From Spirochaeta sp. (lineage in GTDB: Bacteria > Spirochaetota > Spirochaetia > UBA9216), in assembly GCA_003454605.1 (NCBI GenBank), contig DMKD01000004.1, forward strand, positions 1-31,863: a stretch of DNA of 31,863 bases. The letters are read 5' to 3'. Shown one piece after another: positions 1 through 16,340 of the stretch. A program made the position numbers and the translations under genes. The stretch's first letter is position 1. Each line of letters begins with the position of its first letter. The notes below the pieces were generated by a model, which saw nothing but the letters and a program-made list of their open reading frames with translations, was not told the DNA's origin and did no database searches.

Positions 1-1
1 A

Positions 2-172: not shown

Positions 173-202
173 TGACAATTTATAGTTAGATAGGATAAAA
201 AC

Positions 203-1180
203 ATGGACAATGTAATTTGGGGCATGATCGGTTGCGGAGATGTCACTGAGATCAAAAGCGGCCCGGGACTGTATAAGTCAGAGTCATCCGAACTTAAAGG
301 TGTCTTTAACCGCACTCTGGCGAAAGCGGAGTCCTATGCTGAACGCCATAATCTTAAAAAAGTATATCACTCAGCAGAAGAGATGCTTAAAGACGATGAG
401 ATAAATGCCGTATACATTGCCACCCCCCCAAACTCGCACAAAGATTACGCTATAGCCTGTCTGAACGCAGGCAAAATTCCTTATATTGAAAAACCATTGG
501 CAATGTCCTACAAAGAATGTATTGAAATAGAAAGCTGTGCGAAAAAGAAAAAACTGCCGGTATTTACTGCTTATTACCGTCGTGGAATAGAGAAGTTTAT
601 AAAAATAAAAGAATTGATCGATTCCGGAGCTATAGGCAATATTCGATATGTCACAGTGAGCCAGGTAATGTCTGTAGAAAAGAGTGAACTATATAAAAAG
701 GATCTTCCCTGGCGAGTCATTCCTGAAATATCCGGAGGCGGAAAATTTCTTGATATGGGAACTCATGTACTGGACTGTCTAATCTGGTATTTCGGCCAAA
801 TGGTATCTCTTGATGGTGTCGTCCTGAATCAGGGAGGATATTATGAGGCTGAAGATACAGTTGCAGCCAGTTTTCAATTTAAAAACGGTGTTTGCGGAAG
901 CGGAACCTGGTGCTATGTCGGGGATAAAAATAAAAATGAGGTACAAATTGCAGGCGATGCAGGACGCATAATATACGACGGACTGTCTGTTAAATCATTC
1001 AAGTTAATTCAAAACGACGAAGTGAAGGTTTTCAACTTCAAAGAACCGGAACATGTTGCAATGCCTTTTGAACAGGCGGTTGTGTACGAACTGACCGGAA
1101 GGAAAAAGAGTTTTGCTAATTTCAATGATGCGGTTAATCTGACAAAAAAAACAATGGAACTGCTCGCCGGCTATTACTGA
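203..1180 (+). CDS. Gfo/Idh/MocA family NAD(P)-dependent oxidoreductase
   Basis: N-terminal WGMIGCGDV Rossmann motif, VYIATPPNSH, EKP motif (YIEKPLA) and GGGKFLDMGTH, all typical of the family. Confidence 0.9.
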   Translation: MDNVIWGMIGCGDVTEIKSGPGLYKSESSELKGVFNRTLAKAESYAERHNLKKVYHSAEEMLKDDEINAVYIATPPNSHKDYAIACLNAGKIPYIEKPLAMSYKECIEIESCAKKKKLPVFTAYYRRGIEKFIKIKELIDSGAIGNIRYVTVSQVMSVEKSELYKKDLPWRVIPEISGGGKFLDMGTHVLDCLIWYFGQMVSLDGVVLNQGGYYEAEDTVAASFQFKNGVCGSGTWCYVGDKNKNEVQIAGDAGRIIYDGLSVKSFKLIQNDEVKVFNFKEPEHVAMPFEQAVVYELTGRKKSFANFNDAVNLTKKTMELLAGYY

Positions 1181-1681
1181 GCACTCCAGTTCAATTCATT
1201 AAGTCTGAATATATTTTCATGAAAGCCCCGGACGGTCAGCTCATGAAACGGAGGATAAAGGTATTTGTCTCTGAATTCGTATCCGCTTTTGTAATAGGAT
1301 AAATGACTAATCTTTGTAACGGGAGCTCCCTTCGAATCCCAACCCGATTTGAGAAAAATTTGCTGCATTGTAAACCACTGAATCTCCGGGATTGAAAACT
1401 ATCCCGAAATCAATTATTCGGCTATCAAAAGCAAGAACAGGGTCAACCCGCATATAATACTGCCACACGGCTTCAATGCTTTCATAGACATTATATGACT
1501 GCTCATCGAATTCGAATTCGGCGCCCAGATCACTGATCTCATAATTATTAAAGTCTGTCCCGTTTTTCTGCAGAAATTCGTCTACTGATGGAGGAATTAC
1601 ATCAGTGGAGGATTTTATTGTAGAACAGGAACTGAAAACAATGACAGCCGCTGCCAAAAGAATAATCAATTGCTTTTTCAT
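1174..1681 (-). pseudogene. Lipoprotein gene apparently split by a frameshift (ORFs 1307..1681 and 1174..1368)
   Basis: The N-terminal ORF has a basic/hydrophobic signal peptide ending in a lipobox (VFSSC). A second same-strand ORF in another frame overlaps its end and fills the gap up to the convergent oxidoreductase. Confidence 0.5.
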
Positions 1682-1819
1682 ATGATTACATTTTGCATTA
1701 GGCCCTAAGAAAAATCAATAAAAAACTGATTAAGGCAGCTTAAGGGCAGATGAATCATCGTAATTTGACTTTGTATTTTTCAGATACTATATTGAGAACA
1801 TCGACAGAAAGGAAAAATT

Positions 1820-2113
1820 ATGTATACGGCAACAATGGAATATGAGTTCAAGGAAGACCACTTTGATGAGGCAAGCTTATTGTGGAGAGATGAAGTTCTA
1901 TATCTCGCGAAAAAGCAGGCGGGTTTTGTAAGAATGCAGTTTCTCGTTTCATCACCCAAGGCTATGGCTATCGGCACCTGGAAGAGTGATGAAGATGCAA
2001 AAAACTTCATGCAGACAGGCGTTTTTAAAGATCTCATGGAGAAGCTGAAAGATATGATTTCATCTGAACCAAAACCTCAGATCTGGGATTTATTGTATTT
2101 TGCCGAGAAATAA
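1820..2113 (+). CDS. Small antibiotic biosynthesis monooxygenase (ABM)-like dimeric alpha/beta-barrel protein
   Basis: 97 aa. The pattern AKKQAGFVRMQFL...IGTWKSDEDA matches the ABM-type 'xxPGF...xWxS.e.a' pattern. SD-like AAGGA lies upstream. Confidence 0.65.
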   Translation: MYTATMEYEFKEDHFDEASLLWRDEVLYLAKKQAGFVRMQFLVSSPKAMAIGTWKSDEDAKNFMQTGVFKDLMEKLKDMISSEPKPQIWDLLYFAEK

Positions 2114-2802
2114 TCTTTGGGCAAGAATCTGAATAAAGCAAAGCCTTTTCTTAAAAAGTGCTTCAGTATCCCGGTCAATTCCGGACTGCGGAGATAGCCG
2201 TATGATTTGTGAGGGTTCCTCTCTCCCTCATATTCATAATTATTCCAAACCAGCATATCCTGCGGCTGCACAGAGCGGCTGTTGGGAAGAAACTCATTCT
2301 GCAAATCATAATTTATTGCCACCATGTCCTTATAATCTGCCAGGTTATACCAATGCTTATAAATATTCTCCGGAGTTTTCAGCAAGCAGGCATCACTTTC
2401 AGCATGCTGCAGCTCTGAGAGGATCCTGCTGCGGACAACGGGATTACCCAGAGGCGAACCTATGGTCACGAGGGTATGAATTTTTACTTCAGGAACCCAC
2501 TTTGTTAAAACATCCCAGGCAATTATTGACCCCATTGAATGTGCAATAAGGAGTATTTTCTTCCGCCTGTTCCTGAACAGATAGTCTGCCAGCTTCGCAC
2601 AGATTAGATCACTGATTTGTCCTCCGGTAACCCTGTAATAGGCATCCAGATCCTTAATAAAATGCCGCAGGATAAAATCTGTAAGCCGTGAAAAATTAAG
2701 TGAACCGTCATCTTCAAGAATGGCCGCCTTCCACCAATCCTGCAGCTGATCTTCAGCCGGTTTATTTCCCATACCGTGGATTCCGATGGTAATTTTCGAC
2801 AT
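2077..2802 (-). CDS. Alpha/beta-hydrolase fold protein (putative lipase/esterase)
   Basis: IHG oxyanion-type motif near the N-terminus, nucleophile elbow AHSMG, TIGSPL, candidate catalytic Asp (KDMVA) and His (NPHKSYGYL). Confidence 0.7.
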   Translation of the reverse strand: MSKITIGIHGMGNKPAEDQLQDWWKAAILEDDGSLNFSRLTDFILRHFIKDLDAYYRVTGGQISDLICAKLADYLFRNRRKKILLIAHSMGSIIAWDVLTKWVPEVKIHTLVTIGSPLGNPVVRSRILSELQHAESDACLLKTPENIYKHWYNLADYKDMVAINYDLQNEFLPNSRSVQPQDMLVWNNYEYEGERNPHKSYGYLRSPELTGILKHFLRKGFALFRFLPKDYFSAKYNKSQI

Positions 2803-2915
2803 ATTTAATCATTTAACAATACAGTTGTGGTTTTGACAATGAAATTTTAAAAAAATAATAGCCGACATAATTCCGCCACATTTACGCTCTACATTATTAC
2901 TCAGAGGAGTAATAT

Positions 2916-3407
2916 ATGAAGACAATGAAAACCAGTATCATCAGAATTGCAGTTATCACAATGCTGTTAATACTTGTGCCAATGTTAGCATCGGCACTGG
3001 GAAACAATGAGAACGCTTATCCGAAAGCGCTGAGTGACGAGTTCACGGGGATTGCCACAGCACTCCAAGACGGCGAATTGACCAGAGAACAGGCGCTTAA
3101 GCGGCTTCACGAGTTCCGTACCGAGAACAAGAAAGATTACAATGAAGATTATCAGAAAATGGAACGACTCTTAAATGGAGTTCTATCAGGAGAAATGACT
3201 GCGAACCAGGCTCAGGAGCAGGCCCGTCTGCTTAAAGAATGTACTGATCCGCAAACCGAAGCGAAACTGCAGGCTCAAACTCAAAACCGGGAACAAGTCA
3301 AGGTTCAGACCACAACCCAGCAGCAGATAGAGACCGGAACCAGCAATGAGAACAAACCCGAAGCTTCCGGAAGCGGAAGTGCCGACAAGGCAAAAAGTAA
3401 AAAGTAA
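2916..3407 (+). CDS. Exported hypothetical protein with a Q/T/S-rich low-complexity tail
   Basis: SD GAGGAG upstream, signal peptide ending ASA-LGNNEN, helical body and low-complexity C-terminus. Confidence 0.75.
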   Translation: MKTMKTSIIRIAVITMLLILVPMLASALGNNENAYPKALSDEFTGIATALQDGELTREQALKRLHEFRTENKKDYNEDYQKMERLLNGVLSGEMTANQAQEQARLLKECTDPQTEAKLQAQTQNREQVKVQTTTQQQIETGTSNENKPEASGSGSADKAKSKK

Positions 3408-3431
3408 AAAGTAATTTGCCATTGATTTTAA

Positions 3432-3461
3432 CGGGGTGTATACTTGTTCATGTACACCCCG
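3432..3461 (+). terminator. Intergenic hairpin between the two exported-protein genes (terminator/attenuator or mRNA stabiliser)
   Basis: 9 bp stem CGGGGTGTA / TACACCCCG with a 12 nt loop. The T-tract after it is weak. Confidence 0.4.
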
Positions 3462-3485
3462 CTATTTAAAAACGAGGTGATAGAA

Positions 3486-4289
3486 TTGAAAATGAAAGCA
3501 TCGATTTTGACTATTGTATTAGCTGTTTTTCTCATACTCAGCTTTCCCGCGGATTCATCAGCTATGGGGAACCGCGAAAACAGGAACGCGTATAAAATAG
3601 AGCTCCAGACACTATTTGATGAATCGATTGATGGAATTTTTATGAATAAGACCGATGCTCCGGCCGTAAAAAATAAGATTGAAGCTCTACGTAACGTGTA
3701 TGATATATCCTACACTGATGAAGCGGGAATCCTCGATGCTATCATCGATCGGACTGCTGAAAAAACATTCACAAAGGATGAGTCTCATTTCTACTTCGGC
3801 CTGCTGAACGACGGAAAGCTGATGGAGTACCGAAAAGAGAATGCCAGAAAACAATCTGAACAGCATCAGATTGAGGTGCTTTCGTTGCTGCTGCAGAATA
3901 TGAAACCGGAGACTCCCAACGATCCCTATGCAGAAGAACTGCTGGACATCCTTAATAATTATTATGATTTTCTAGGCCTCGAATACGATGAAGGGTATTT
4001 AAAACTAAGTGACCTGATTTATTCGCTTAAAGAACAAAGCATGGATGCAGATGAAATTACTGCAGCTCTTGAATCGACGAATAAAAAACTAGTCCGGCAG
4101 ATCACTGAACAGCAAACTCAAAAAGTCAACCGGATTTCAACCCAAGACCAGAGCAGCAGTCAATCATCACTTCAAAATAGCGACGCGCCCGAAGCGGGCG
4201 GCAATACACCCAATTCACCCTCCAGTCCGGGCGATTCCGGAACAGCAGCACAGAAACCTTCGGGCAGCAGCTCGGGGCCCAGGAACTAA
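3486..4289 (+). CDS. Exported hypothetical protein related to 2916..3407 (probable start TTG 3486 or ATG 3492, not 3444)
   Basis: SD GAGGTG lies just upstream of TTG 3486. Signal peptide ends SSA-MGNRENR. The C-terminus is S/Q/G/P-rich and low-complexity. Confidence 0.75.
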   Translation: MKMKASILTIVLAVFLILSFPADSSAMGNRENRNAYKIELQTLFDESIDGIFMNKTDAPAVKNKIEALRNVYDISYTDEAGILDAIIDRTAEKTFTKDESHFYFGLLNDGKLMEYRKENARKQSEQHQIEVLSLLLQNMKPETPNDPYAEELLDILNNYYDFLGLEYDEGYLKLSDLIYSLKEQSMDADEITAALESTNKKLVRQITEQQTQKVNRISTQDQSSSQSSLQNSDAPEAGGNTPNSPSSPGDSGTAAQKPSGSSSGPRN

Positions 4290-4298
4290 GGGGCGGCC

Positions 4299-4976
4299 TT
4301 GGAAGTAAGCATCCTGATTGTAGAAGACGAGAGCAGAAGCGCTCACTGGATGAAAACATACCTCGAACGTGCGGGATTTAACGCGGCAATTGCCGGCGAC
4401 GGACAAAGCGGGCTGAATATGGCCAGAAAACTCCGCCCGGATTTAATCCTCCTTGACCTTATGCTTCCAGTGATCAGCGGCAACGAACTATGCGGGATAC
4501 TCCGAAGAGAATCTGATGTACCTATTATCATGCTGACCGCCAAAGGCAGCACCGAGGATCGAATACAGGGCATTAACGGGGGTGCCGACGACTACATAGT
4601 TAAACCCTTCGAACCTGAGGAGGTCATTGTCCGAATAAAAGCTGTCTTGAGACGAACTATGGGACTGATGAAGAAAGAGCTTACCTGCGGACCAATCCGG
4701 GTTGATGAAGAGAGAGAATCTGTTCATATAAACGATTCGCAGATCCAGATGAGTCACGCCCAATTCATGATTTTTTCAGTTTTTATGAATAACCCGGGCG
4801 TTGTACTGAGCCGAGGACAGATAATTGAACAAGCCTTTGATGGAAATTTTGATGCCTACGAACGTGCGATTGATACTCATATCCGCCGTTTGCGAAAGCT
4901 TCTCCACACCGACAACTTCGAACCAATCCGGACAGTCTACGGAGGCGGCTATAAACTTGTATGCGCATCTCATTGA
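4299..4976 (+). CDS. OmpR/PhoB-family response regulator (BaeR/CpxR-like)
   Basis: Receiver domain (LIVEDE, LLDLMLP with phospho-Asp, IIMLTA, GADDYIVKPF) and winged-helix domain (RAIDTHIRRLR, IRTVYGGGYK). TTG start. Confidence 0.93.
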   Translation: MEVSILIVEDESRSAHWMKTYLERAGFNAAIAGDGQSGLNMARKLRPDLILLDLMLPVISGNELCGILRRESDVPIIMLTAKGSTEDRIQGINGGADDYIVKPFEPEEVIVRIKAVLRRTMGLMKKELTCGPIRVDEERESVHINDSQIQMSHAQFMIFSVFMNNPGVVLSRGQIIEQAFDGNFDAYERAIDTHIRRLRKLLHTDNFEPIRTVYGGGYKLVCASH

Positions 4977-6337
4977 AATCTATCTACTTCCAGGTTCTCA
5001 TTTCTTTCCTGCTTATTATCATGTCCAACCTCATTATAAGCACCGTAATTGAATATTATACATACACAGCCCAGCTTCCAAGGCTGATCACCGAGATTCG
5101 GATCAAATCTATTGCACAGCACCTCAGCTCTACATACACGCGAGATCAGAACTGGAATAATCTGGACATTGAAATACAACGTATAAACAACCTTGAAAGT
5201 CTGAATACCCTCGAAGACGCAAACCTGAGGATTATAATCAGAGACCGAAAAGGCCAAACTATCTACAACAGCTTTTTGAATATCACCCGGCTTGGAAACA
5301 GTGAATTGATAGAAGGAGAATCACAGACTATCATCGATTATAAAACAGAAGAGCCTGTCGGAGTAGTGACAATATATATCAGCCGCGACTATGTTCTAAA
5401 GCATGCTCAATCCTATATCTCCGAGCTTATTGAATCCGGGATCTTCAAAGGCCTCATCACTGCCGCGATAGCCTTTATTATCAGCCTCCTGCTCTCACGG
5501 CGGATTACCCGGCCGGTTATTCAGCTGACCGATGCAGCACAGAGAATTGCTGAAAATAAGGAAAGCAGCCCTATTGCCTCTTCATCAACCAACGAGCTGG
5601 ACAGGCTGAGCGACACTTTCAACAGCATGCTCTCATCGCTGCAAAACCAGAGAGAATTAAGAAAACAGCTGATATCAGAGATCTCGCATGAAATCAACAC
5701 CCCCTTGAACACAATCCGCCTGGAGGCGCGGGCATTGTCGGACGGACTCGTCAATCCCGGCGAAGCAAGTAATATCATTATCAATGAGATAGATTCATTG
5801 AAAAACCTCATCTACGATCTGGATTGGCTGGCTGAAACGGATTCAGGCGCCTATATTCTGAAAAAAGAAAAATGCTCAATATATAAACTACTGGCAGAAG
5901 TAGTAAAACGCCGACAGCCCAGGGCTGAGACGCGCAACTTGAAACTTATTCTCGGCGAATATACAGGCTTCCTGCCGGTTGTTATGATTGATGCGGTCAG
6001 AATCAGCACAGCTCTCAGCAATTTAATTGACAACGCAATAAAATACTCTCCCGAGCAGGGACAGATTAATATAGGATGTGAACTTACCAACAAAACCATA
6101 GTAATTTCGGTATGCGATGACGGCAAACCTATTGCGCCGGAACATCGACAGCACATCTTCGAACGTTTTTACCGAGAGAACCGGAGAGCAACAGCCGGGG
6201 TTGGCGGCAGAGGCCTAGGCTTGTTTATTGTAAAGCAGATAGTTGAGTTGCATCAGGGTAAAATATTGCTTGAATGCGGAGAAGAGAAAGGCAACTGTTT
6301 CCTGTTTTCTTTGCCGGAATCTTTGTTCACAGAATGA
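4961..6337 (+). CDS. Membrane sensor histidine kinase (2 TM, HAMP, HisKA, HATPase; BaeS-like)
   Basis: Two hydrophobic segments, HAMP (ITRPVIQL...ELDRLSDTFNSM), H-box SHEINTPL, N-box NLIDNAIKYS, G boxes DDG and GRGLGL. Overlaps the regulator gene by 16 nt. Confidence 0.93.
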   Translation: MRISLKSIYFQVLISFLLIIMSNLIISTVIEYYTYTAQLPRLITEIRIKSIAQHLSSTYTRDQNWNNLDIEIQRINNLESLNTLEDANLRIIIRDRKGQTIYNSFLNITRLGNSELIEGESQTIIDYKTEEPVGVVTIYISRDYVLKHAQSYISELIESGIFKGLITAAIAFIISLLLSRRITRPVIQLTDAAQRIAENKESSPIASSSTNELDRLSDTFNSMLSSLQNQRELRKQLISEISHEINTPLNTIRLEARALSDGLVNPGEASNIIINEIDSLKNLIYDLDWLAETDSGAYILKKEKCSIYKLLAEVVKRRQPRAETRNLKLILGEYTGFLPVVMIDAVRISTALSNLIDNAIKYSPEQGQINIGCELTNKTIVISVCDDGKPIAPEHRQHIFERFYRENRRATAGVGGRGLGLFIVKQIVELHQGKILLECGEEKGNCFLFSLPESLFTE

Positions 6338-6366
6338 CTCCCTCTTCACCTCTTAATTTCTATTAT

Positions 6367-6951
6367 CATAGCTGTCCAAAACAAGGTATAGTAAGAGCCT
6401 GGAATCCAGTTTATAATGAATTGAGCAGGCAATGAATAATAGGCATTGATGCAACAACGATAGATTTATATCTATCAGAATTCCCATGGGCAAAATTCAG
6501 AAAGACAAAAGGCGGAATTAAGATGAACGTGAAACTTGATCACCGTGGTTATATTCCAGTCTTTGTTTCTGTTACAACAGCTAATAAACATGAAGTGAGT
6601 TCAGTAAAGATAATGGAATTCCAGAAAGGAGACGTCATAACCTTCGATTGGGCTCCAACAACAATTGCCACTATTTATAAAGATAGATGGCAGATAGAAA
6701 TATTTTTTAAAACAATCAAACAGAACCTGAAAATCAAAAAGTTTTTCGGAACGATAAAAAATGCAGTGATGACTCAGATCTTGATAGCATTGATAGCCCA
6801 TTTAATGCTGCAATATCTGAAGATGTTATCTTCCGGAGGATGGACCCATTATTCACTCATGAAACTACTTCCATTGATTTTGACGACCAAAAAAAATCTC
6901 TGGAGTGTTCTGAATAAACTGGAGCTGTTATGATTGTTTTGGACAGCTATG
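6367..6951 (+). mobile_element. Internally deleted (non-autonomous) IS4-family element, 585 bp
   Basis: Perfect 18 bp terminal inverted repeats: CATAGCTGTCCAAAACAA (6367-6384) and TTGTTTTGGACAGCTATG (6934-6951). They enclose transposase fragments. No target-site duplication seen. Confidence 0.88.
6436..6933 (+). pseudogene. IS4-family DDE transposase remnant (N-terminus missing, central deletion)
   Basis: After an in-frame stop the frame reads IIGIDATTIDLYLSEFPWAKFRKTKGGIK...ITFD/WAPTTIATIYKDRWQIEIFFKTIKQNL. It has the first Asp motif (IDATT) and the YREK-type motif (YKDRWQIE). The segment expected after FD(RGY) is absent. Confidence 0.88.
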
Positions 6952-6981
6952 AAAAATGATAATGAATTATTAATTCTTATA

Positions 6982-7482
6982 TCAGTCATCCAGAGTAAAG
7001 TTCGCCCTCACCTCTCGAAATAAAGCCTCGAAAAATGGACTTTTCGCTGATTTTATTCCGTGCTCAGAGAGGATCTCATCGCGCTCATTAAGAAAAAACT
7101 CGTACAGGAATTTCAACGCTGCTGACTTCGTCTCGGGTCGATAACAGAGGGCTACGACCTTCTGAGTTTCAGGGATATCGAAAAAATGCTTTCGCCCGTT
7201 CACAATGAAATAGTAGGTTTTACCATTGTCAGATCTGCTTATCTCAATATCAAATTCACCGGTAACAGGTTTGGGGATTTCAGCATCTTCTTCACCCTTT
7301 TTCTGATTCAGCTCATTCATTTCCCTGTTAATCTTAACAGTCCGCTGATTGTGAATTATCGTATTTGCCTGCTTAATAAGAAAAAGAAGACCTTCCTCCA
7401 TTATTTCAGGAATCAGACCTGTAAGTTCTTTTTCAAGCCTCAATTTCTGGGATTCTGTCTGTGTTTTTGTCTTTTTAGCCAT
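6982..7482 (-). CDS. Hypothetical cytoplasmic protein
   Basis: 166 aa ORF with natural, charged composition filling the space. No family recognised. Confidence 0.7.
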   Translation of the reverse strand: MAKKTKTQTESQKLRLEKELTGLIPEIMEEGLLFLIKQANTIIHNQRTVKINREMNELNQKKGEEDAEIPKPVTGEFDIEISRSDNGKTYYFIVNGRKHFFDIPETQKVVALCYRPETKSAALKFLYEFFLNERDEILSEHGIKSAKSPFFEALFREVRANFTLDD

Positions 7483-7527
7483 ATCAATATGATTTTATCA
7501 CATAGATTGGGTTATACTTATTAAAGT

Positions 7528-8217
7528 ATGAAAAAAATTGTCCTGGTAATGTTTTTTATCCTTATGGCGACGACTATTCAAGCTTCCAATTGGCATACTG
7601 CTGTCGAAATATATGGAAACAGCGTCGACCTCAAGCCCTACAAATTGAGTATATTATCCCAAACCTTCGACCGAAAAGGCCAGCTCGAGAAGACCGAAGA
7701 GCTTACATTCCATCTTGACTACAGCCTCGATGAAGACAATCCCGAAAGAGAGCTTATTCTGGCATTAGAAGACGGCAAGGATGTTACCGAAGAGAAGAGG
7801 AAAGAACTTGCAAAAGGACGCGGTGATTCAAACGGACCTCCCGGAAACATGGAGGACATGCAGAAGATGCCTCTTGATCCGGCTGTACAGACGGACGTCA
7901 GCTCATTTTTTAGCGGCAGAACTGAAATTAGAAACGGTATAACCTGTGAAGTCTGGAATTTTGAAATCATCCTGAACGACAAATACACCGGTGTCGGAAC
8001 AGCCTGGCTCATTCCTTCTACAGGAGCAGCCGCGAGTCTCGAATACCGCATTGAGCCGCTTTTCCACTTCGTCGAAGAGATGAATATGGGCATGGAATTT
8101 GGTGATGACCTCTCCGACAGATGGGTTATGCACTCAATGAATATGGCAGGCAAAATAAATATGCTGGTAATGAAGAAAGGATTTAAATCAATAATCGAGT
8201 TCGATGATTACAGATAA
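7528..8217 (+). CDS. Exported hypothetical protein
   Basis: 229 aa with signal peptide MKKIVLVMFFILMATTIQA-S. No family recognised. Confidence 0.75.
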   Translation: MKKIVLVMFFILMATTIQASNWHTAVEIYGNSVDLKPYKLSILSQTFDRKGQLEKTEELTFHLDYSLDEDNPERELILALEDGKDVTEEKRKELAKGRGDSNGPPGNMEDMQKMPLDPAVQTDVSSFFSGRTEIRNGITCEVWNFEIILNDKYTGVGTAWLIPSTGAAASLEYRIEPLFHFVEEMNMGMEFGDDLSDRWVMHSMNMAGKINMLVMKKGFKSIIEFDDYR

Positions 8218-8227
8218 TCCTACAGCT

Positions 8228-8275
8228 GTTTAAAGGTTGTATTTTTCGTTACATCCAGCGCTTCAGCGGTTTTCG
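8228..8275 (-). repeat. Degenerate copy of the 3' end of the NtrC-family gene (direct repeat of 14932..15004)
   Basis: GTTTAAAGGTTGTATTT is identical at 8228-8244 and 14932-14948. GTTACATCCAGCGCTTCaGCgGTTTTCG at 8248-8275 matches 14977-15004 with 2 mismatches. Confidence 0.85.
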
Positions 8276-8288
8276 GGCGTGACGGCAA

Positions 8289-8317
8289 TTGCGGCTATCC
8301 CGTAATTTTTATATAAT
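8289..8317 (+). promoter_or_regulatory. Putative sigma70 promoter of the SNF2 operon (probably leaderless mRNA)
   Basis: TTGCGG (8289-8294), 17 nt spacer, TATAAT (8312-8317), then CCCCCC and ATG 8324. No SD. Confidence 0.6.
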
Positions 8318-8323
8318 CCCCCC

Positions 8324-11095
8324 ATGACTGATACGATTTTTGAGGCATTAAAAAGGCCGAATGCTTCTCCCCTCCAGAGAGGGGCCAGGATTAAGTTTTT
8401 CTTTCAGATAACTGAAGGAGAGAGGGGCGCCTATATCAATATTGTGGACTCAAAATTCCGGGAGGTTAACCCGAATCCACACCTGTACGCGGCCCGGGAG
8501 CGCCAGCTTCTTCAGCTGATTAACCAGTTAAAAGAGAAAAACAGCCTTACCATCGACTGGGAACGCAAAGAGGATCATATATATATCGATAAACATGATT
8601 ACCTTATCCCTCTTTTAAAAGAGCTGGAGAATGTTATCGATCATGCAGGGGCCCCCGTAACCGTCGAGGAGGTTGAGGGCGAATTAAGACTGCATCTCGA
8701 AGAGACTGACAAGACCTTCGATTCACGGACATTTTTCCATGCACAGGGAAATAGTTACCGTGAGTTTACCCTCCTGTCCCGGCAGTATGTTATGACGGAT
8801 AATACAATCTATCCGGTAGCGGACGGGGGAAACAGTTTCCGCCTGTTGGAGCTTTTTAATACGAAGCTCATGAAATCCCGGCTGGAGCCCTTCCTCTCCC
8901 TCTTCTATTCCAATTTTGACCAAATCGAAGTTTGTCTTCCGGAATACACAATAACAAGAGGAGAAGCGCTAAAGACCGATCCCACCCTGATCATTCGCGA
9001 TGTCGATGAGAACAAAACCCTCCAGCTGGAAATAAAAGCGATCCTTCCGAACTTTCCCGACAACTTCCTACTTGAGTATGATATTCATTCCGTTGCCTCG
9101 GCGGATTCCGTCGAAAAGAAGATTGTTCTCCATGAACTCCTCTACACGGACCTTTCCTCAAAGATAACAGAGATAGAGAAACTCCTTAAAAAACTGAAAT
9201 CCCAGGTTGACGGAAGCTCAGATTATTATATTTCCGATAATCTTTTTATCATTGATGAAGAAATTGCCCGGCTCCTTATTTACGAACATTTGACGGAACT
9301 TATGTCCGGTTTTACAATTCTCGGCGAAGAAAAATTGAAGGGCTTTAACGTCAGAACAGTGAAACCTGAACTTAATCTCTCATTAAACCACGGTATTGAT
9401 TTTCTTGAAGGGTCAATCAATCTCGACATCGAGGGATCCGTTTTTTCATTGTATGACCTTTTCAGGGAAATAAACAAACGGTCCTACATCCCCCTTAGCG
9501 ACGGAGCTCATGGAATCATCAACAAATCTTATCTGGATAAATTGCAGAGACTTTTCAAACCGGACAATAAAACCGTAAAAATATCATTCTTCGATCTTCC
9601 TCTGGTGGAAGAACTTATCGGAAAACGGATCGCCGAAACGGTTTTTCCCAAGGCCAGGGAAATATTCCGGGGCTTTAACAACCTGAAGGACGCAAACCCC
9701 GAATTCCCGGAACTGAATGGAAAGCTCCGGGACTATCAGAAGTACGGTTTCATCTGGATGAACTACCTGCACGGCAACAACCTGGGCGGATGTCTGGCCG
9801 ATGATATGGGGTTGGGAAAAACCATTCAGGCCATAGCCCTACTTAACAAAATATACCCGAAGGAAGGCCGGTCATCTCTTCTGATAATGCCCACTACCCT
9901 CCTGGATAACTGGAAAAGAGAGATTGAAAAATTCAGCCCCGGTCTTTCCTTCTGTGTGTATCACGGACTCAAACGGGATTTTTCCCGGGCCAGCCGCAGC
10001 TCCGTGATCCTGACAACCTACGGGACCGTCCGAAACGATATCCGAACTCTGGCGGATTATGATTTTCACGCCGTCATCCTCGATGAATCTCAAAAGATAA
10101 AAAATGTCGCTTCGGGAATATCGAAAGCTGTAATGCTGCTTAAATCCGATTACCGCCTGGCCCTGAGCGGAACGCCGATAGAAAACAATCTGTTTGAACT
10201 CTACGCCCTTTTCAGATTTTTGAATCCCTCGATGTTCGGCTCGCTCCAGGATTTTTCAAAAAAGTATGCGGGACCTATCCAGAAGGATAACAACAAAGAC
10301 GCGATGCGGGAACTGCGAAAAAAGATCTACCCCTTCATCCTGCGCAGAACAAAGCAGGCGGTCCTGAAAGAGCTTCCCGACAAGATTGAACAGGTACTCT
10401 ACACGGAGATGGACCGGGAATTGACCCTGTACTATGAGGATCGGCGGCGGATGTATTATGACGCAATCAGAAACAAGATAAGCTCCCAGGGACTGAATAA
10501 AAGTAAATTTTTTATACTTCAGGCCCTGTCGGAACTCAGGCAGATCGCCAGCATCCCTGAGCGTCAGACCGACGGCCGAATGACGTCCCCAAAACTGGAA
10601 CTGCTCATCGATCAACTTATAGACACCTCCGGAAGCGGTCATAAATCCCTTGTTTTCGTTAACTTTCTCGACACCATACCTCTCATCGGAAAAAGGCTCG
10701 AACAGGAGGGCATTGAGTTTCTGACCATGTCCGGGGTCACCCGGAACCGGGGAGAGTTGGTAAGTGAATTTCAGGATAACGACCACATCAAGGTTTTTAT
10801 CATGACGCTGAAAACAGGCGGAGTCGGACTCAACCTGACCGCGGCGGATTATGTGTTTATATTTGATCCATGGTGGAATAAATCCGCGGAAAACCAGGCC
10901 GTAGACAGAACTCACAGGATCGGTCAGAAAAATACGGTTTTCAGTTACAAGCTGATAACCAGCGGCACGATAGAAGAGAAGATCTTACAGCTCCAGGAAA
11001 AGAAGAAAGAACTCTTTGATGATCTGCTTTCCAGCGAGGGCGAGGCAATAAAAAAACTCGACGAGAGAGACATCGATTATATTTTTAAGGAATAA
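8324..11095 (+). CDS. SNF2/SWI2-family superfamily 2 ATPase (DNA translocase)
   Basis: Motif I LADDMGLGKT, Ia LLIMPTTLLDNW, II ILDESQ, III ALSGTPIEN, LRRTK, IV LVFVNF, V LKTGGVGLNLT, VI QAVDRTHRIGQ. The long N-terminal extension has no obvious SWIM Cys/His motif. Confidence 0.93.
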   Translation: MTDTIFEALKRPNASPLQRGARIKFFFQITEGERGAYINIVDSKFREVNPNPHLYAARERQLLQLINQLKEKNSLTIDWERKEDHIYIDKHDYLIPLLKELENVIDHAGAPVTVEEVEGELRLHLEETDKTFDSRTFFHAQGNSYREFTLLSRQYVMTDNTIYPVADGGNSFRLLELFNTKLMKSRLEPFLSLFYSNFDQIEVCLPEYTITRGEALKTDPTLIIRDVDENKTLQLEIKAILPNFPDNFLLEYDIHSVASADSVEKKIVLHELLYTDLSSKITEIEKLLKKLKSQVDGSSDYYISDNLFIIDEEIARLLIYEHLTELMSGFTILGEEKLKGFNVRTVKPELNLSLNHGIDFLEGSINLDIEGSVFSLYDLFREINKRSYIPLSDGAHGIINKSYLDKLQRLFKPDNKTVKISFFDLPLVEELIGKRIAETVFPKAREIFRGFNNLKDANPEFPELNGKLRDYQKYGFIWMNYLHGNNLGGCLADDMGLGKTIQAIALLNKIYPKEGRSSLLIMPTTLLDNWKREIEKFSPGLSFCVYHGLKRDFSRASRSSVILTTYGTVRNDIRTLADYDFHAVILDESQKIKNVASGISKAVMLLKSDYRLALSGTPIENNLFELYALFRFLNPSMFGSLQDFSKKYAGPIQKDNNKDAMRELRKKIYPFILRRTKQAVLKELPDKIEQVLYTEMDRELTLYYEDRRRMYYDAIRNKISSQGLNKSKFFILQALSELRQIASIPERQTDGRMTSPKLELLIDQLIDTSGSGHKSLVFVNFLDTIPLIGKRLEQEGIEFLTMSGVTRNRGELVSEFQDNDHIKVFIMTLKTGGVGLNLTAADYVFIFDPWWNKSAENQAVDRTHRIGQKNTVFSYKLITSGTIEEKILQLQEKKKELFDDLLSSEGEAIKKLDERDIDYIFKE

Positions 11096-11100
11096 CCGGC

Positions 11101-13620
11101 ATGAGACATCCGCTTTTGATAGAAATAGATAATACTGAACAATGGATAATACCGGGGGAAGATCCACTAGCCTGTACTCAATGTCAGGATTTCATGCAGA
11201 GTGATTATTTTCGCTTTTCTGACGGTCGTATTCTATGCATCTCCTGCGTCATACATGAACTTCAGGAAAAAGCTTCAGAGATACTTCTTCACTCAATGCA
11301 TACAAGGGATATAGAAAAAGAAATTGACACTCTGAAAAAACACAAGAACATATCCGCCCTGCTGCCTTCATTGATATCCCTGCCGCAAAGGATTGATGCC
11401 TATGATCCGGAGGACGGGAAAGCACCTCTCCTGCTGCAAAATATTGTATCCCTCATGGGGCATACGGAGCATCCCCTTTCACCCTTTATACGGCAAAACG
11501 CCTTCAATCTCAGCGAAACCATTGGGAAGGCGGTTCTTCCGTATTGCAGGACTCATTTTGGCACGCCCGTTTGGCAGTTTTACTGCAATACCCTTATGAC
11601 GGCGGGCATTATTGCTCCGGCTGATAAGGAAGTTCAGGAAGAACTGGAAAAGGCCTGGACTCACGAAAATGAGGAAATAAAAACTTTCATTCAAGGGGTC
11701 TTCAAAAAGGAGAGCTTCGGCATCTACCATAAATCAATCAATACAAAAACTTTGGAAACATTGAAGACCATCAATATGAAATTCAAAACCATACAGGAAA
11801 ACAGAACATATTTTCTTGACACTGCGGATTTACAGGAGCTGCAGGACATCATTCTGGAGAAATATGATCTGACGAGACTTAAATCGCTCTTTGACAATTA
11901 CCTTTCCCGACTTTTCAACACTTCCGACAGGGAAGCATCTTCCGGCAGGAAAAAAAAGATTACAAAAAGAGAAATGGCGGGAATGCTTACCGTCACCCTC
12001 AAGACAAAAGAACTCTTCGACTCTTTTTTCCTTCTCCTGCCCAAGGATGTGCGGGAGATTTTCAGGACTCTTGTATGGCGAAATCAAAAACTTGATTTGA
12101 ATGGATTGGAAAAGAAATATAAAAGAAAAATTCTGATAAAGGAGAAGGGAAACCGTTACGGAAGTCGGGAAAAAATAATTGATGATTATTCTGTTTTCCA
12201 ATACCACGAAGAGTGGGATTACAGAAACGGCGACTACAACTATTATATTTACATAGACGCGAGAATAAGAAGGACAGTGAAAGGATTTTTTCCTCCTCCG
12301 GAATGGAGCGTTCTGAATTTTTTGGAAACCTTCGAGAGTTCGAATATCTTTAAGGATGAAAGGGCTTTCCTGGAAGGTGTAGAACTCATGATCCAGTATA
12401 TAGGGCACAACCCCGTCTCCTGCACCGCCACGGGAAAGATATCCGCAAAATACATCAGAGATTTCAATAAGCGATGTGAAATTGAAGAGTTCTTTGTTTC
12501 TCCGACCCAAAAGACGCTTCAATTTATCCGAACGGAAATGCTTATCAGAATCCTGAACGATATCGATAATATTGAATTTACGGAGCCGCATGAAATTATT
12601 AAAGAGATATACGGAAAGACAATAAAATCCGATGATTTTAACATGTTCATAGTCGGCACTTTTCTGAGTTATCTTAAATTCGACCGTATGGACTACAAAT
12701 ATTACTACGAAAAGGAAAACAGGCGGTTCAGTAAAAATATCCGGAAAATAATGACGAATGTCCTAAAAAACCTGGAAGAAGATAAATGGCTTGCGTTAAC
12801 GAATATATTCCTCAGTATGGATTATCATGAACAGCTTTTTTATATTTTTCCGCTTCAGGAATATAAAAACATGTTTCACTTTAACGAAACATATACTGAT
12901 TATTACGAACAGCGCGAGAAAATATACATTTCAGAAGAAAACTATGTTGAAACGGTGTTTATTCCGTTCTTCAAAGCATTTTTTCATTTTCTCGCCGCCC
13001 TCGGAATTGTCGATATGGCAGGGACTGAACCGCACAACGACTCTTTTCATCAAAATAAGCTTGACTACCTGTCCCGCTATGACGGCCTGGAAGCGGTCAG
13101 GCTGACCCCGCTTGGCTCCTATGTCCTAGGGATGTCTCCAAAGGCGCCCGAAGCCCCGGCCGATGAGGATCCATTTCAAATTCGCCTTGATGATCAGTTT
13201 CTGCTGATTCAGACAAAAGGTTCCGACAGGGTGAAGGAGTTCATCATCAATGATATTGCCGAAAAAATAAAACCGGGGAACTACCTTGTTACTTTTGATT
13301 CCTTCTTAACAAACTGTAAAGGCCTGAGAGATGTGAAAGACAAAATCGCCGTCTTCAGGGAGAAGCTGGAGAAAAATCCTCCCGATAGATTTGAATTGTT
13401 TTTCCGGGAGATTCTCGCACGTTTCAATCCCATGGAAGAAAAAAACGGTTATGCTCTGTACAAGATAAAAAACGATCCCCTTCTTATTAAATTGATCACC
13501 GAAGACCCTTACCTGAAAAAGAGCATACTGAGGGCCGAAGATTTTCATATTCTGATAAAAGAGGATAAGCTGAAACAGGTAAAACAGAAACTTGTAAAGT
13601 CGGGGTTTTATATCAGTTAA
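11101..13620 (+). CDS. Large hypothetical protein: N-terminal CxxC..CxxC zinc finger, helical region, C-terminal XPB-N/Helicase_C_3-like domain
   Basis: CTQC...CISC near the N-terminus. The C-terminal RLTPLGSYVLG...IRLDDQFLLIQ...YLVTFDSFL...LVKSGFY pattern resembles Helicase_C_3 (PF13625)-type proteins (recognised by eye). It starts 5 nt after the SNF2 stop. Confidence 0.65.
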   Translation: MRHPLLIEIDNTEQWIIPGEDPLACTQCQDFMQSDYFRFSDGRILCISCVIHELQEKASEILLHSMHTRDIEKEIDTLKKHKNISALLPSLISLPQRIDAYDPEDGKAPLLLQNIVSLMGHTEHPLSPFIRQNAFNLSETIGKAVLPYCRTHFGTPVWQFYCNTLMTAGIIAPADKEVQEELEKAWTHENEEIKTFIQGVFKKESFGIYHKSINTKTLETLKTINMKFKTIQENRTYFLDTADLQELQDIILEKYDLTRLKSLFDNYLSRLFNTSDREASSGRKKKITKREMAGMLTVTLKTKELFDSFFLLLPKDVREIFRTLVWRNQKLDLNGLEKKYKRKILIKEKGNRYGSREKIIDDYSVFQYHEEWDYRNGDYNYYIYIDARIRRTVKGFFPPPEWSVLNFLETFESSNIFKDERAFLEGVELMIQYIGHNPVSCTATGKISAKYIRDFNKRCEIEEFFVSPTQKTLQFIRTEMLIRILNDIDNIEFTEPHEIIKEIYGKTIKSDDFNMFIVGTFLSYLKFDRMDYKYYYEKENRRFSKNIRKIMTNVLKNLEEDKWLALTNIFLSMDYHEQLFYIFPLQEYKNMFHFNETYTDYYEQREKIYISEENYVETVFIPFFKAFFHFLAALGIVDMAGTEPHNDSFHQNKLDYLSRYDGLEAVRLTPLGSYVLGMSPKAPEAPADEDPFQIRLDDQFLLIQTKGSDRVKEFIINDIAEKIKPGNYLVTFDSFLTNCKGLRDVKDKIAVFREKLEKNPPDRFELFFREILARFNPMEEKNGYALYKIKNDPLLIKLITEDPYLKKSILRAEDFHILIKEDKLKQVKQKLVKSGFYIS

Positions 13621-13774
13621 GGCGTTTTTGGTTTTACTGTACCCCAAGATATTTAAATGAACGATATTACACCCCGTGTGATTAGCGACAATTATTTTTC
13701 CCTGTTCAACGACAATTATAATTTCCGTTTTCAATTTGTCAATTAAATTATCCTAAGGCAGCTCCTCAGGATAA

Positions 13775-13960
13775 TATCCAGTTCTTCCATTCGTTAAGCA
13801 GAGAATCGAACTATTTTCAGAAAATCTTCCGGAGAAAAAAACTCTAATCTATGATAATGTTCCTCAATTTACTACTATTGATTATTGCTGGTACGGGATA
13901 AAGGGAGTCAATATCTGCACAGCTGCCCCAAACATGAATGCCTATGTGGAAAGATTATGA
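13775..13960 (+). pseudogene. Remnant of an rve (integrase core, DDE) IS transposase
   Basis: Manual translation between stops: YPVLPFVKQRIELFSENLPEKKTLIYDNVPQFTTIDYCWYGIKGVNICTAAPNMNAYVERL*. It contains the second Asp (LIYDN) and catalytic Glu (PNMNAYVER) motifs. No start codon context; not in the ORF track. Confidence 0.7.
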
Positions 13961-14065
13961 AAGACCCAATTTTATGCAGATTGCACCACAACTATTACAG
14001 AAGCAGTGCTTGAAAGTCTAAAAAGCTATAGCACGGGCATCGATAGTCGACAGGTTTTGTCATGA

Positions 14066-14380
14066 TCATGAAGCCGTTGGATGAATCTTCTCATATTCTT
14101 TATTATTTTTCTCTTTAGCAATATCCAAGTCATATAATGATTGAAGATTTATCCAATATTCAGCAGATGTCCCAAAATATTTTGACAATCTTATTGCTGT
14201 ATCTGCTGTAATTTTCCTTGTTCCTTTAATGATTCTTGAAATTCTCATGGGATCTACGCCTATGCTTTTTGCCAACTCATAAGCAGAGAGTCCCATCGCT
14301 TCAAGAAAATCTTCTTTGAGGACTTCTCCTGGTGTAGTCAGTTCTATCAATTCATCACTATATTCTACTTTTTCTTCCAT
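14066..14380 (-). CDS. higA: HigA-family antitoxin (XRE HTH addiction module antidote)
   Basis: TPGEVLKEDFL...SAYELAKSIGV...RISRIIKGTRKITADTAIRLSKYFGTSAEYWINLQSLYDL is the classic HigA pattern. It lies downstream of the toxin gene. Confidence 0.92.
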   Translation of the reverse strand: MEEKVEYSDELIELTTPGEVLKEDFLEAMGLSAYELAKSIGVDPMRISRIIKGTRKITADTAIRLSKYFGTSAEYWINLQSLYDLDIAKEKNNKEYEKIHPTAS

Positions 14381-14391
14381 ATCTAAACTCC

Positions 14392-14673
14392 CTAATGATA
14401 ATCACAAAATTCAACATTATATGCATTCCCATCATCCCAAAGAAAGCAGATGCGCCATTGATCATTCACACGAATAGAATGCTGCCCTTTCCTGTCGCCT
14501 TTTAATGCCTCCAATTTATTACCAGGAGGTATTTTTAAATCATCAAGGACAACCGAACTCTCAATAGATCTTAATCCTTTCAGAGCCTTCTTTGCTAATA
14601 CAGGATGCATTCCCTTTTTCATTTTCCTATTGTATATTGCTTCAGTGTTTGTATCAGCAAAGCTTTTAATCAT
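14392..14673 (-). CDS. higB: HigB/RelE-ParE family toxin
   Basis: MIKSFAD...DLKIPPGNKLEALKGDRKGQHSIRVNDQWRICFLW...VEFCDYH is the classic HigB pattern. Toxin-first gene order. Confidence 0.92.
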   Translation of the reverse strand: MIKSFADTNTEAIYNRKMKKGMHPVLAKKALKGLRSIESSVVLDDLKIPPGNKLEALKGDRKGQHSIRVNDQWRICFLWDDGNAYNVEFCDYH

Positions 14674-14678
14674 AGACT

Positions 14679-14707
14679 ATTATAGCCCACAAGGCTAATA
14701 GCGTAAA
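14679..14707 (-). promoter_or_regulatory. Putative sigma70 promoter and operator of higBA (probably leaderless)
   Basis: Minus strand: TTTACG (14707-14702), 17 nt spacer, TATAAT (14684-14679), 5 nt, ATG. The palindrome TAGCC-N5-GGCTA (14683-14697) overlaps the spacer and -10. Confidence 0.65.
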
Positions 14708-14933
14708 GAGCTAATACACAATCCCCGATGCTGAAATTTATTAAAATTCTAATGTTGTTAGAGAAAAAGAGTGAGAACGTAGGTTACTACGTTTTATTCT
14801 TCCGGCACTAAATTCAACTCTATTATCGTTCAAGTGCATAAGGATGTAAAAAACTAATCCACAGGTTCAGGAATTGTTTAGCCTCTTAGACAGATTTCGG
14901 TGCAAGGAAGTTTTTTAACGTCATCAATCCGGT

Positions 14934-16340
14934 TTAAAGGTTGTATTTCTCAATTTTACGGGCAAGTGTCTTCCGTGTTACATCCAGCGCTTCGGCAGTT
15001 TTCGTCCTGTTTTGATCATGCTCAGAGAGCGCATTAGAAATTATGCGCTTTTCATAAAAATCTACAATATCATCAACTGCATCTTTCAGTGTTTTTCCTT
15101 TCCCGCTAGTATCCAAATCTACCCCTGACTCCTGCAAAAGATTTCCCTGAAAATTTAGGGTTTCGATTTCGGTACCCTCACATAGAAGAACAGCCTGGTT
15201 TATCATATTCTGCAGCTCTCTGACGTTCCCCGGCCATCTATACTCATGCATTAATTTAAAAAGATTTTCTTTAATGGACAAAATCTTTTTATTGTAACGC
15301 TGATTGTAGATATTAAGAAAATATACTGCGAGAAGCGATATGTCCTCTGGACGCTTTCTCAGCGGCGGAAGATGACATGAGATTACATTAAGCCTGAAAT
15401 ATAAATCCTGCCGAAACTTATTTTCTTTTATCAGCTGTTTTAAATCCCTGTTCGTAGCAGCAATCAGCCTTACATCGACATCGATCTTCTTTGTTCCGCC
15501 AACCCGCTCAAAACTCCGCTCTTCAAGAACCCTGAGAAGTTTCGCCTGCACGTCCAGCGACATATCTCCGACTTCATCCATAAAAAGCGTACCATTGTCG
15601 GCAAGTTCAAATTTCCCCAATTTCTGCTCAATTGCACCGGTAAAAGCGCCCTTCTCATGACCGAAAAGTTCACTTAAAAGGAGGCTGTCCGAAAGAGCTG
15701 CACAATTTATACCTACGAAGTTTCCGTCTTTTCGATTACTTGTAAAGTGAATATATCTCGCGAGCACCTCTTTCCCCGTGCCGCTCTCACCTGTAATCAG
15801 AACTGTAGCAGGAGAGTTCTTAATCTTGTCGGCGACACCGAGCACCTCTTTCACAGCAGGGTTATCGGTTATAAAATCATGGCAGAATACAGAGGTGAGA
15901 AGAGCCTTTTTAAGATATGTATTTTCAGTCCTCAAACATCTGATTTCAAGATTCTTTTTAACAGTTATCAGCAGCTTATCTTTCTCAATCGGTTTAAGGA
16001 TATAATCAGCAGCACCCTGCTTCATGGCCTGAACACTGCTGTTAATACTTCCGTGACCGGTTATCATTAGAACAACCAACTCAGGATCCGCCGATTTCAG
16101 CTCACCAAGAAGTTCAATGCCGTCCCGCGTACCTTTCAAACTGATATCCAATACGGCGATATCAATTTTATTTTTATTTATTATTAATACAGCTTCTTCA
16201 TAGTTTTCAGAAGAAAAAACCCGGTATCCCTCTTTTTCAAAAAGCTTCCCGAGAGCGTACCTTATCCCTTCTTCATCATCTACTATGAGGATGCTTTGTT
16301 TTTCTTTCCTTGAAGTCTCCATATTACATTCCTTGCTCAC
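14934..16340 (-). CDS. NtrC/AtoC-family sigma54-dependent response regulator (REC, AAA+, Fis HTH)
   Basis: Receiver (LIVDDE, VLDISL), Walker A GESGTGKE, GAFTGA loop, Walker B FMDEV, RQDLYFRL, WPGNVREL and a C-terminal HTH (RTKTAEALDVTRKTL). Confidence 0.95.
   Translation of the reverse strand: MSKECNMETSRKEKQSILIVDDEEGIRYALGKLFEKEGYRVFSSENYEEAVLIINKNKIDIAVLDISLKGTRDGIELLGELKSADPELVVLMITGHGSINSSVQAMKQGAADYILKPIEKDKLLITVKKNLEIRCLRTENTYLKKALLTSVFCHDFITDNPAVKEVLGVADKIKNSPATVLITGESGTGKEVLARYIHFTSNRKDGNFVGINCAALSDSLLLSELFGHEKGAFTGAIEQKLGKFELADNGTLFMDEVGDMSLDVQAKLLRVLEERSFERVGGTKKIDVDVRLIAATNRDLKQLIKENKFRQDLYFRLNVISCHLPPLRKRPEDISLLAVYFLNIYNQRYNKKILSIKENLFKLMHEYRWPGNVRELQNMINQAVLLCEGTEIETLNFQGNLLQESGVDLDTSGKGKTLKDAVDDIVDFYEKRIISNALSEHDQNRTKTAEALDVTRKTLARKIEKYNL

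Follow-up and report, generated by a model that had tools for sequence, protein, structure and literature searches.

What a bacterial SNF2-family ATPase does beside a large companion protein, annotated in RefSeq as 'hypothetical protein', is the question raised by two neighbouring genes of Spirochaeta sp. They lie on contig DMKD01000004.1 of assembly GCA_003454605.1, and positions 1 to 31,863 of its forward strand (31,863 nucleotides) form the whole stretch analysed here, called the window. The first gene encodes the ATPase (P0001, 923 residues) and the second encodes the partner (P0002, 839 residues). In the present study, the two genes were found to be kept together as a pair in several phyla, and the predicted structure of the partner was found to resemble p52/Tfb2, the companion of the XPB motor in TFIIH. 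We propose that the pair represents two subunits of a regulated double-stranded DNA (dsDNA) translocase, with genome maintenance as its most likely task, be it repair, replication or the removal of protein-DNA complexes. We hold this account at about even chances, and a dedicated role in phage defence appears less likely to us than genome maintenance. The partner would be a non-enzymatic p52/Tfb2-like adaptor, modelled as an array of small domains ending in a clutch-fold domain. The two genes and their parts are as follows.

8324..11095, plus strand: SNF2-family ATPase gene, P0001, 923 residues (open reading frame (ORF); Pfam and motifs)
8324..9703, plus strand: N-terminal region of the SNF2 protein, residues 1-460, subfamily-specific and ZorD-N-domain-like (AlphaFold2 (AF2) model and Foldseek)
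9704..11095, plus strand: SNF2 motor with two RecA-like lobes, residues 461-923 (Pfam, PADLOC, NCBIfam and structure match)
11101..13620, plus strand: partner gene, P0002, 839 residues, p52/Tfb2-like in its predicted fold (ORF; AF2 and Foldseek)
11101..11775, plus strand: partner residues 1-225, zinc ribbon (C25, C28, C46, C49) and HEAT-like repeats, in long forms only
11833..13167, plus strand: partner residues 245-689, conserved core modelled like the N-terminal half of TFIIH p52
13168..13620, plus strand: partner residues 690-839, domain of the XPB N-terminal/Helicase_C_3 ('clutch') fold, with the stop codon

The first evidence for this proposal is the conservation of the pair. The two ORFs (8324-11095 and 11101-13620, both on the plus strand) are separated by a gap of 5 nucleotides, in which the stop codon TAA at 11093-11095 is followed by ccggc and the ATG at 11101, just as a first-pass annotation of the window had described. 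Of 61 related genomes, 10 had the family defined by the SNF2 N-domain and 12 had the partner family, and every one of the 10 genomes with the SNF2 gene (10/10) carried the partner. Wherever one contig carries both genes, they are adjacent and co-directional (the source genome G000, G009, G039, G046, G022, G018 and G054). In G060 a C-terminal fragment of the SNF2 protein is encoded just upstream of the partner, and in G029, G012 and G027 a contig break falls between the two. Searches with hidden Markov models (HMMs) recovered the same order, SNF2 and then partner, in Desulfonema ishimotonii (902 and 871 residues), in an ENA metagenome contig (927 and 866 residues), in an NCBI metagenome-assembled genome (925 and 598 residues) and in a Chitinophagales genome (L065:12822-16427), in which a SNF2 protein of 938 residues is followed by tandem partner paralogues of 601 and 592 residues, both matching the family HMM at E<1e-140. 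By annotation, ORF calls or tblastn, the pair was also located in eight Fusobacterium species genomes (SNF2 of 899 residues, partner of 597) and on a plasmid of Chondrinema litorale, where genes of 2,808 and 1,806 nucleotides, annotated as 'DEAD/DEAH box helicase' and 'hypothetical protein', are flanked by IS110 and IS982. Across phyla, the gap between the paired genes varies from an overlap to about 70 nucleotides. The first-pass annotation had made its proposal depend on the two genes being conserved as a pair, and such conservation was borne out by their co-occurrence, adjacency and recurrence in other phyla.

The second evidence is the fold of the partner. P0002 has no Pfam, NCBIfam or PADLOC family match, nuclease and ATPase families included, which agrees with the earlier statement that no such motif was recognised in it. 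It matched none of 5,027 PADLOC models, candidate (PDC/HEC) sets included, as had been expected. Below threshold, a CxxC-x17-CxxC zinc ribbon gave a trace of LIM (E 0.035), and the only other trace was of Tfb5 (E 0.11). A word-based homologue search gave a single relative, 60% identical, in a metagenome-assembled genome of Spirochaetales, and an exhaustive profile search covering 1.84 billion representatives gave a family of 1,154 clusters (50% identity) at E<=1e-3, of which 307 pass E<=1e-30. Among the best 150 representatives, 100 have a short form of about 600 residues without the zinc-ribbon/HEAT module and 43 have a long form of about 840-870 residues, with an N-terminal CxxC...CxxC in 39 of the latter. 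In Pfam scans of 62 aligned members, HEAT models gave the only matches (HEAT_2 in the N-terminal extension of 15). The invariant positions of the partner (W563, P622, G635, G672, F767 and G835) look structural and not catalytic, judging by the residue types.

The AF2 model of the partner, built from a 76-sequence alignment, reached a predicted local distance difference test (pLDDT) value of 89.1 and a predicted TM-score (pTM) of 0.77. Its top PDB matches by Foldseek were the TFIIH chains 7zs9_2, 7o4i_2, 8ebs_D and 6nmi_D (E 4.6e-5 to 1e-3, probability about 1.0, 560-600 aligned columns), which we take to be p52/Tfb2 from their length, the output having printed entry titles only. The next matches were XPB/Ssl2 chains over about 170 columns. 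Residues 309-679 match the N-terminal half of p52 and residues 690-839 match the XPB N-terminal domain, so P0002 shares the three-dimensional fold of the latter (Helicase_C_3), and in the model the p52 resemblance spans the whole partner core of about 600 residues. The ESM-Atlas neighbours of the partner are bacterial clusters with Helicase_C_3, with smaller shares of Tfb2, WYL and TP_0021_N. Therefore, on the Foldseek matches and these neighbours, the earlier guess of an XPB-N/p52-clutch fold at about residues 680-839 was right as to fold, and it found no support from the Pfam models of Helicase_C_3 and Tfb2. A more distant member of the family, in G024, does score 31.4-34.9 bits with Helicase_C_3 at the equivalent C-terminal position. 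Searched against PDB sequences, the partner profile gave AlphaRep/HEAT and LIM-like zinc-finger matches only.

The third evidence comes from a parallel bacterial XPB operon. A Helicase_C_3 match was obtained in 52 of the 61 related genomes, the strong match in each being a protein of about 565 residues that was confirmed as XPB in the cases examined. Beside the XPB gene, an ORF of about 620-730 residues homologous to P0272 is found in 19 of 20 fetched loci; at the remaining locus (L050), the P0272 homologue is present without an XPB match. The source genome itself keeps a separate operon of XPB and XPB-neighbour on contig C99 (L028). In the congener G004 (L029:4459-8205), the gene for XPB (about 565 residues) is followed by one for a protein of about 680 residues with a weak Helicase_C_3 domain. 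By hhalign, the partner family and the XPB-neighbour family align collinearly across 447 columns (probability 75.9%, E 2.3e-5), partner 262-836 running with XPB-neighbour 19-482, and XPB-neighbour residues 334-483 align with the XPB N-terminal domain at E 1.3e-10. The direct profile-profile comparison of the partner with the XPB N-terminal domain gave E 6e-3 only, and no significance was reached when hhalign set the partner family against single sequences of XPB or of the XPB-neighbour, so that the comparison is informative only from profile to profile. Since the partner resembles the XPB-neighbour and the XPB-neighbour resembles the XPB N-terminus, p52-like proteins would therefore repeatedly pair with translocases of superfamily 2 (SF2), and XPB with its neighbour of about 680 residues looks like a bacterial pair of XPB plus p52-like protein. 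No characterisation of the XPB-neighbour was found in the literature searched.

One locus brings the two modules side by side. In G039 (contig C11, L010:5639-7306), an XPB gene lies convergent, 14 nucleotides past the end of the SNF2-partner pair. In this single case, the XPB gene has no usual downstream neighbour, and the other weak Helicase_C_3 ORF is found only on a different contig. A functional link between the XPB module and the SNF2-partner module is possible from this arrangement.

The motor is a canonical one of the SNF2 family. In P0001, SNF2-rel_dom (PF00176) covers residues 471-742 (E 1.3e-64; 218.5 bits, cut-off 24.9) and Helicase_C (PF00271) covers residues 757-867 (64.3 bits, cut-off 23.5), both lobes thus exceeding the gathering scores. 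The claim that all motifs are intact was confirmed by locating motifs I, II, III and VI as GLGKT at 496, DESQ at 587, SGTP at 615 and DRTHRIGQ at 861. Among solved motors, the Sulfolobus SWI2/SNF2 core 1z63 comes nearest (E 1.3e-92). The best PADLOC matches are DpdE (E 1e-120) and ZorD (E 1.3e-102). All NCBIfam and PADLOC matches to DpdE, ZorD, DrmD and RapA are restricted to the motor region and stand far under the curated cut-offs.

The preceding region of some 450 residues had been described as free of a SWIM finger, and no Pfam match or SWIM finger was indeed seen in the first 460 residues or so at E<=1. A SWIM-type partner, as in Bacillus YwqA/YwqB, was considered and dropped, with no SWIM motif or Pfam match found. 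These N-terminal 460 residues define a subfamily of proteins of about 925 residues in Spirochaetota, Desulfobacterota, Bacteroidota, Cyanobacteriota-related lineages, SAR324 and Kiritimatiellota. The AF2 model of the region (pLDDT 85.4) gave one significant match when the suggested Foldseek search of the PDB was made, namely ZorD in its apo form (8qy7, E 3.4e-8, 436 columns). VIA-align gave weak matches only, and the N-domain profile had no match among PDB sequences. The N-domain of E. coli ZorD (1-502) lies packed against the Snf2 domain, the two forming a toroid; autoinhibition is seen in the full-length protein, and the isolated Snf2 domain carries out ATP-dependent DNA degradation (PMC11946911).

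How the two proteins may work together can be outlined from these likenesses. The partner's C-terminal region would dock on the SNF2-specific N-terminal region, and this docking would release or tune the autoinhibition of the SNF2 ATPase, an effect that p52 has on XPB and RNA polymerase on RapA. The zinc-ribbon/HEAT module of the long forms, together with the p52-like array, may bring the motor to its substrate. In eukaryotic TFIIH, p52 docks on the XPB motor and activates it. A model of the complex, which the first-pass annotation had named among its checks, was made in one run with SNF2 residues 1-470 and partner residues 560-839, each with its own alignment. The score was 0.33 and the best of three controls reached 0.00, which the tool grades as 'weak support'; in its calibration, 58 of 80 solved complexes came up to the mark, as did 2 of 110 mismatched pairs, and only 7 of those 80 solved complexes, with both mismatches, did so at 0.60 or under. 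Agreement between the runs covers at least 70% of contacts, with a pLDDT of at least 78 for the partner. The pair scored above its controls, and the score is weak by the calibration of the tool.

Several results weigh against the proposal that the pair is a dedicated p52-like two-subunit translocase for genome maintenance. As to the likeness with p52, the Pfam models for Tfb2 (PF03849; cut-off 34.5 bits) and, in a six-frame genome search, Helicase_C_3 (PF13625; cut-off 34.2 bits) gave no match to P0002 at E<=10, and neither matched any of the 62 aligned family members (Helicase_C_3 at E<=0.05); P0002 was therefore not filed as a member of either family. The p52 link, being one of predicted fold and of one profile-profile comparison, would accordingly be read as a likeness and not as family membership. 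The TM-scores of the partner against the p52 chains are low (0.14-0.27) and the root-mean-square deviations are high, as is explained by the extended build of the two chains, each of several domains. As to binding, the complex score nudges the prior and falls short of establishing that the two proteins meet. As to pairing, the member of the partner family in G024 stands alone, beside ribonucleotide reductase and YchF, and the long-form member P0005 is without SNF2 in its 12-kb contig. As to a core role, the pair is sporadic in Spirochaetota (6 of 301 genomes in a sample of the phylum, and none of 5 congeners), it lies within a 14.8-kb stretch that is missing from the nearest relative and next to HigBA, and other loci have HepT/MNT with PIN, a Type III methyltransferase, HEC-04 or insertion sequence (IS) elements nearby, neighbours that fit accessory or defence genes.

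These last points belong to the rival that the pair is a two-gene system against phages or mobile elements. Its SNF2 protein would be an effector like ZorD, DpdE or DrmD, possibly degrading DNA in an ATP-dependent manner once released, and the p52-like partner would be the sensor of foreign DNA or of a phage protein. In addition to the sporadic distribution and the variable region with HigBA and a transposase relic, it can call on the best PADLOC matches of the motor, on the N-domain fold in common with ZorD and on the DNA degradation by the freed Snf2 domain of ZorD (PMC11946911). The neighbours named above also speak for it: in G022 (contig C51, L013:22-1728) the pair has directly upstream of it a gene for a Type III methyltransferase (PADLOC MTase_III, E 3.8e-254), with no Res gene seen in the stretch examined, the HEC-04 neighbour matches its PADLOC model at E 4.7e-216, and IS110 and IS982 flank the plasmid pair. 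However, the partner matches no PADLOC model, the SNF2 matches are restricted to the motor with scores far below the NCBIfam cut-offs (246 bits against 1500 for ZorD, 56.5 against 500 for DpdE, and 101 against 950 for DrmD), and the Pfam scans around the pair found no DUF1998, PLD, methylase, PglZ or recognisable nuclease. The Pfam scans of the ORFs between positions 203 and 22498 likewise gave no ZorA-, ZorB- or ZorC-like ORF. The 50,697 phage records searched yielded no homologue. Furthermore, in the Fusobacterium nucleatum group (L068-L076) the order MBL-fold hydrolase, SNF2, partner and dnaE is stable in 8 species, wherever the contigs reach, and the identity of the partner (81-99%) tracks that of dnaE (84-97%). 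Most of the other neighbourhoods are metabolic or regulatory, with metabolic neighbours at L010, L011, L014, L051, L065 and L066. The evidence between a housekeeping and a defence role is split and does not favour defence over housekeeping; we regard the defence system as unlikely. In F. vincentii, a DpnII-type restriction-modification system and an Mrr gene follow dnaE.

Two other explanations concern the target and the association of the proteins. The pair might be a remodeller directed at RNA polymerase, like RapA or Mfd, in which the partner binds the polymerase or a stalled complex and the SNF2 motor pushes or recycles it. The p52/XPB module works inside the transcription initiation complex, and protein docking is a typical task of HEAT and zinc-ribbon modules. 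RapA, too, is a bacterial SNF2 ATPase with an autoinhibitory N-domain that is opened by RNA polymerase (PMC8501970). We nevertheless judge this explanation to be highly improbable, as the RapA score of P0001 in NCBIfam is 18.8 against 576, the fold searches returned no RapA-like Tudor N-domain, the zinc-ribbon/HEAT module is missing in 100 of the 150 representatives and the neighbourhoods examined show no link to an RNA polymerase gene. Alternatively, no complex may be formed at all, adjacency reflecting co-regulation, with the partner working with another helicase (XPB) or alone as a DNA-binding scaffold. The stand-alone members of the partner family, the weak complex score and the XPB gene of G039, convergent directly after the pair and without its usual neighbour, are in line with such an arrangement. 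Against this stand the co-occurrence of the pair across phyla with adjacency on every contig that has both genes, the separate XPB operon kept by the source genome and the value of 0.00 in all three controls; we give the absence of a complex a slim chance. We retain the two-subunit translocase for genome maintenance as our working account.

The surroundings of the pair in the window include the following features.

8248..8275, no strand assigned: left copy of a 28-nucleotide direct repeat that brackets a 6.7-kb segment
14066..14673, minus strand: HigB toxin/helix-turn-helix (HTH) antitoxin module within the bracketed segment, not conserved with the pair (Pfam)
14977..15004, no strand assigned: right copy of the 28-nucleotide direct repeat, inside the 3' end of an NtrC-family gene

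The two repeat copies are 93% identical. The toxin gene is at 14392-14673 (minus strand; HigB-like_toxin, E 2.4e-17) and the antitoxin gene at 14066-14380 (minus strand; HTH_3, E 4.3e-13). The transposase relic at 6523-6933 matches DDE_Tnp_1 (E 7.8e-10) over no more than the final 55 of its 200 model positions. Of the repeat-bounded segment with transposase relic and toxin-antitoxin module that had been described, the repeat and the HigBA inside it were recovered; the relic is real and lies outside. In the closest relative, G003 (L059), directly after the NtrC-family orthologue (83% identical) comes that of the gene at window positions 1-172, and therefore about 14.8 kb (173-14933), the pair included, are missing there. 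This variable region contains an oxidoreductase, a hydrolase, a two-component pair, the transposase relic, the SNF2 pair and HigBA, and is larger than the 6.7-kb segment bracketed by the repeats.

The operon had also been credited with its own promoter, a claim that we could not sustain: no sigma-70 site was called upstream of 8324, and the promoter-like sites of the region (10) equal the expectation from shuffled sequence (9.9). A terminator-like hairpin lies at 8287-8307, upstream of the SNF2 ATG, and a TATAAT is found at 8312-8317, 6 nucleotides before this ATG, with a C-rich stretch and no Shine-Dalgarno sequence; as far as the sequence can tell, the SNF2 mRNA may be leaderless. No RNA data set is listed for this DNA, and the one sequencing run that contains it is the marine metagenome from which it probably came. 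Just beyond the partner stop codon, a sigma-70 consensus at 13715-13742 on the minus strand (TTGACA, 16 nucleotides, TATAAT; 12/12) points into the 3' end of the partner gene and lies directly upstream of a 142-residue ORF (13306-13734, minus strand) that has no family match. This site could be the start of an antisense transcript or belong to a small gene.

Neither the pair nor any bacterial p52/Tfb2 homologue nor the XPB-neighbour protein was found described in the searchable literature. In the same way, the earlier worry that the pair might match an already characterised system found no basis, with no PADLOC model for the partner and no paper found. If the partner is a p52-like regulator of SNF2, the pair is an undescribed bacterial two-subunit DNA translocase, novel in that an SF2 translocase with a p52-type clutch subunit would here be bacterial and driven by a SNF2 motor. 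Taken with the parallel XPB operon, it would give the XPB-p52 module of TFIIH a tangible counterpart in prokaryotes, and would bear on where that module came from and on what bacterial XPB does. A wider reading is possible, with the balance tilting somewhat against it: a widespread bacterial superfamily of p52/Tfb2-like 'clutch' proteins would serve as regulatory subunits of SF2 dsDNA translocases, with one branch going with XPB and another with a SNF2 motor whose N-domain is ZorD-like and autoinhibitory; the TFIIH module would have descended from, or share ancestry with, prokaryotic two-gene modules, and bacterial DNA remodelling machines would gain a new class in the SNF2 pair. Fusobacterium nucleatum carries the pair and is both cultivable and medically studied, so the hypothesis is directly testable.

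The known systems with which the pair was compared include DISARM, Dpd and BREX. The motors DrmD, DpdE and BrxH share SNF2 or SF2 homology with P0001, whereas none of the companion genes of these systems is present here and the partner is not in their models. The first-pass annotation had said as much for DISARM and BREX, and neither methylase nor PglZ nor PLD was found near the pair. DISARM was rejected on the DrmD scores (41 bits against 610, besides the one given above) and the missing DUF1998, PLD and methylase genes, Dpd on the DpdE score, motor-only PADLOC matches and the lack of dpd genes nearby, and BREX on its missing companion genes and scores far under the family cut-offs. RapA (HepA) is likewise a bacterial SNF2 motor, which the domain at its N terminus autoinhibits until a protein partner opens it. 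Unlike the pair, it is a single polypeptide that works with RNA polymerase, with no N-domain fold in common found, and on its NCBIfam equivalog score RapA was set aside as an identity for P0001.

Type I Zorya is another of these systems. ZorD also carries an N-domain of about 450-500 residues and similar fold before a SNF2 motor, and the PADLOC ZorD models match the motor of P0001; zorA, zorB and zorC are missing here, the gene order differs and the partner is unrelated to ZorC (no PADLOC match). Membership of type I Zorya was rejected on the ZorD score and on the scans that gave no ZorA/B/C-like ORFs.

Two further comparisons are with the XPB modules. In the bacterial XPB operon, the neighbour gene also follows immediately downstream of an SF2 motor gene, and its product is collinear with the partner core, with Helicase_C_3 at the equivalent position. 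The differences are that its motor is XPB, that it is near-universal in the class (52/61) whereas the SNF2 pair is sporadic (12/61), and that the XPB-neighbour has a C-terminal extension of its own of about 190 residues and no zinc-ribbon/HEAT module. With respect to TFIIH, the motor here is SNF2 and not XPB, and equivalents of p8/Tfb5, p44, p34, p62 and XPD are not present. The partner differs from p52 in its extra zinc-ribbon/HEAT N-terminus and in the lack of a match to the Pfam Tfb2/Helicase_C_3 HMMs. Nevertheless, the combination of p52/Tfb2 with XPB/Ssl2 offers the same plan that we predict for the pair, an SF2 dsDNA translocase joined to a non-enzymatic multi-domain subunit with a clutch of the XPB N-terminal fold.

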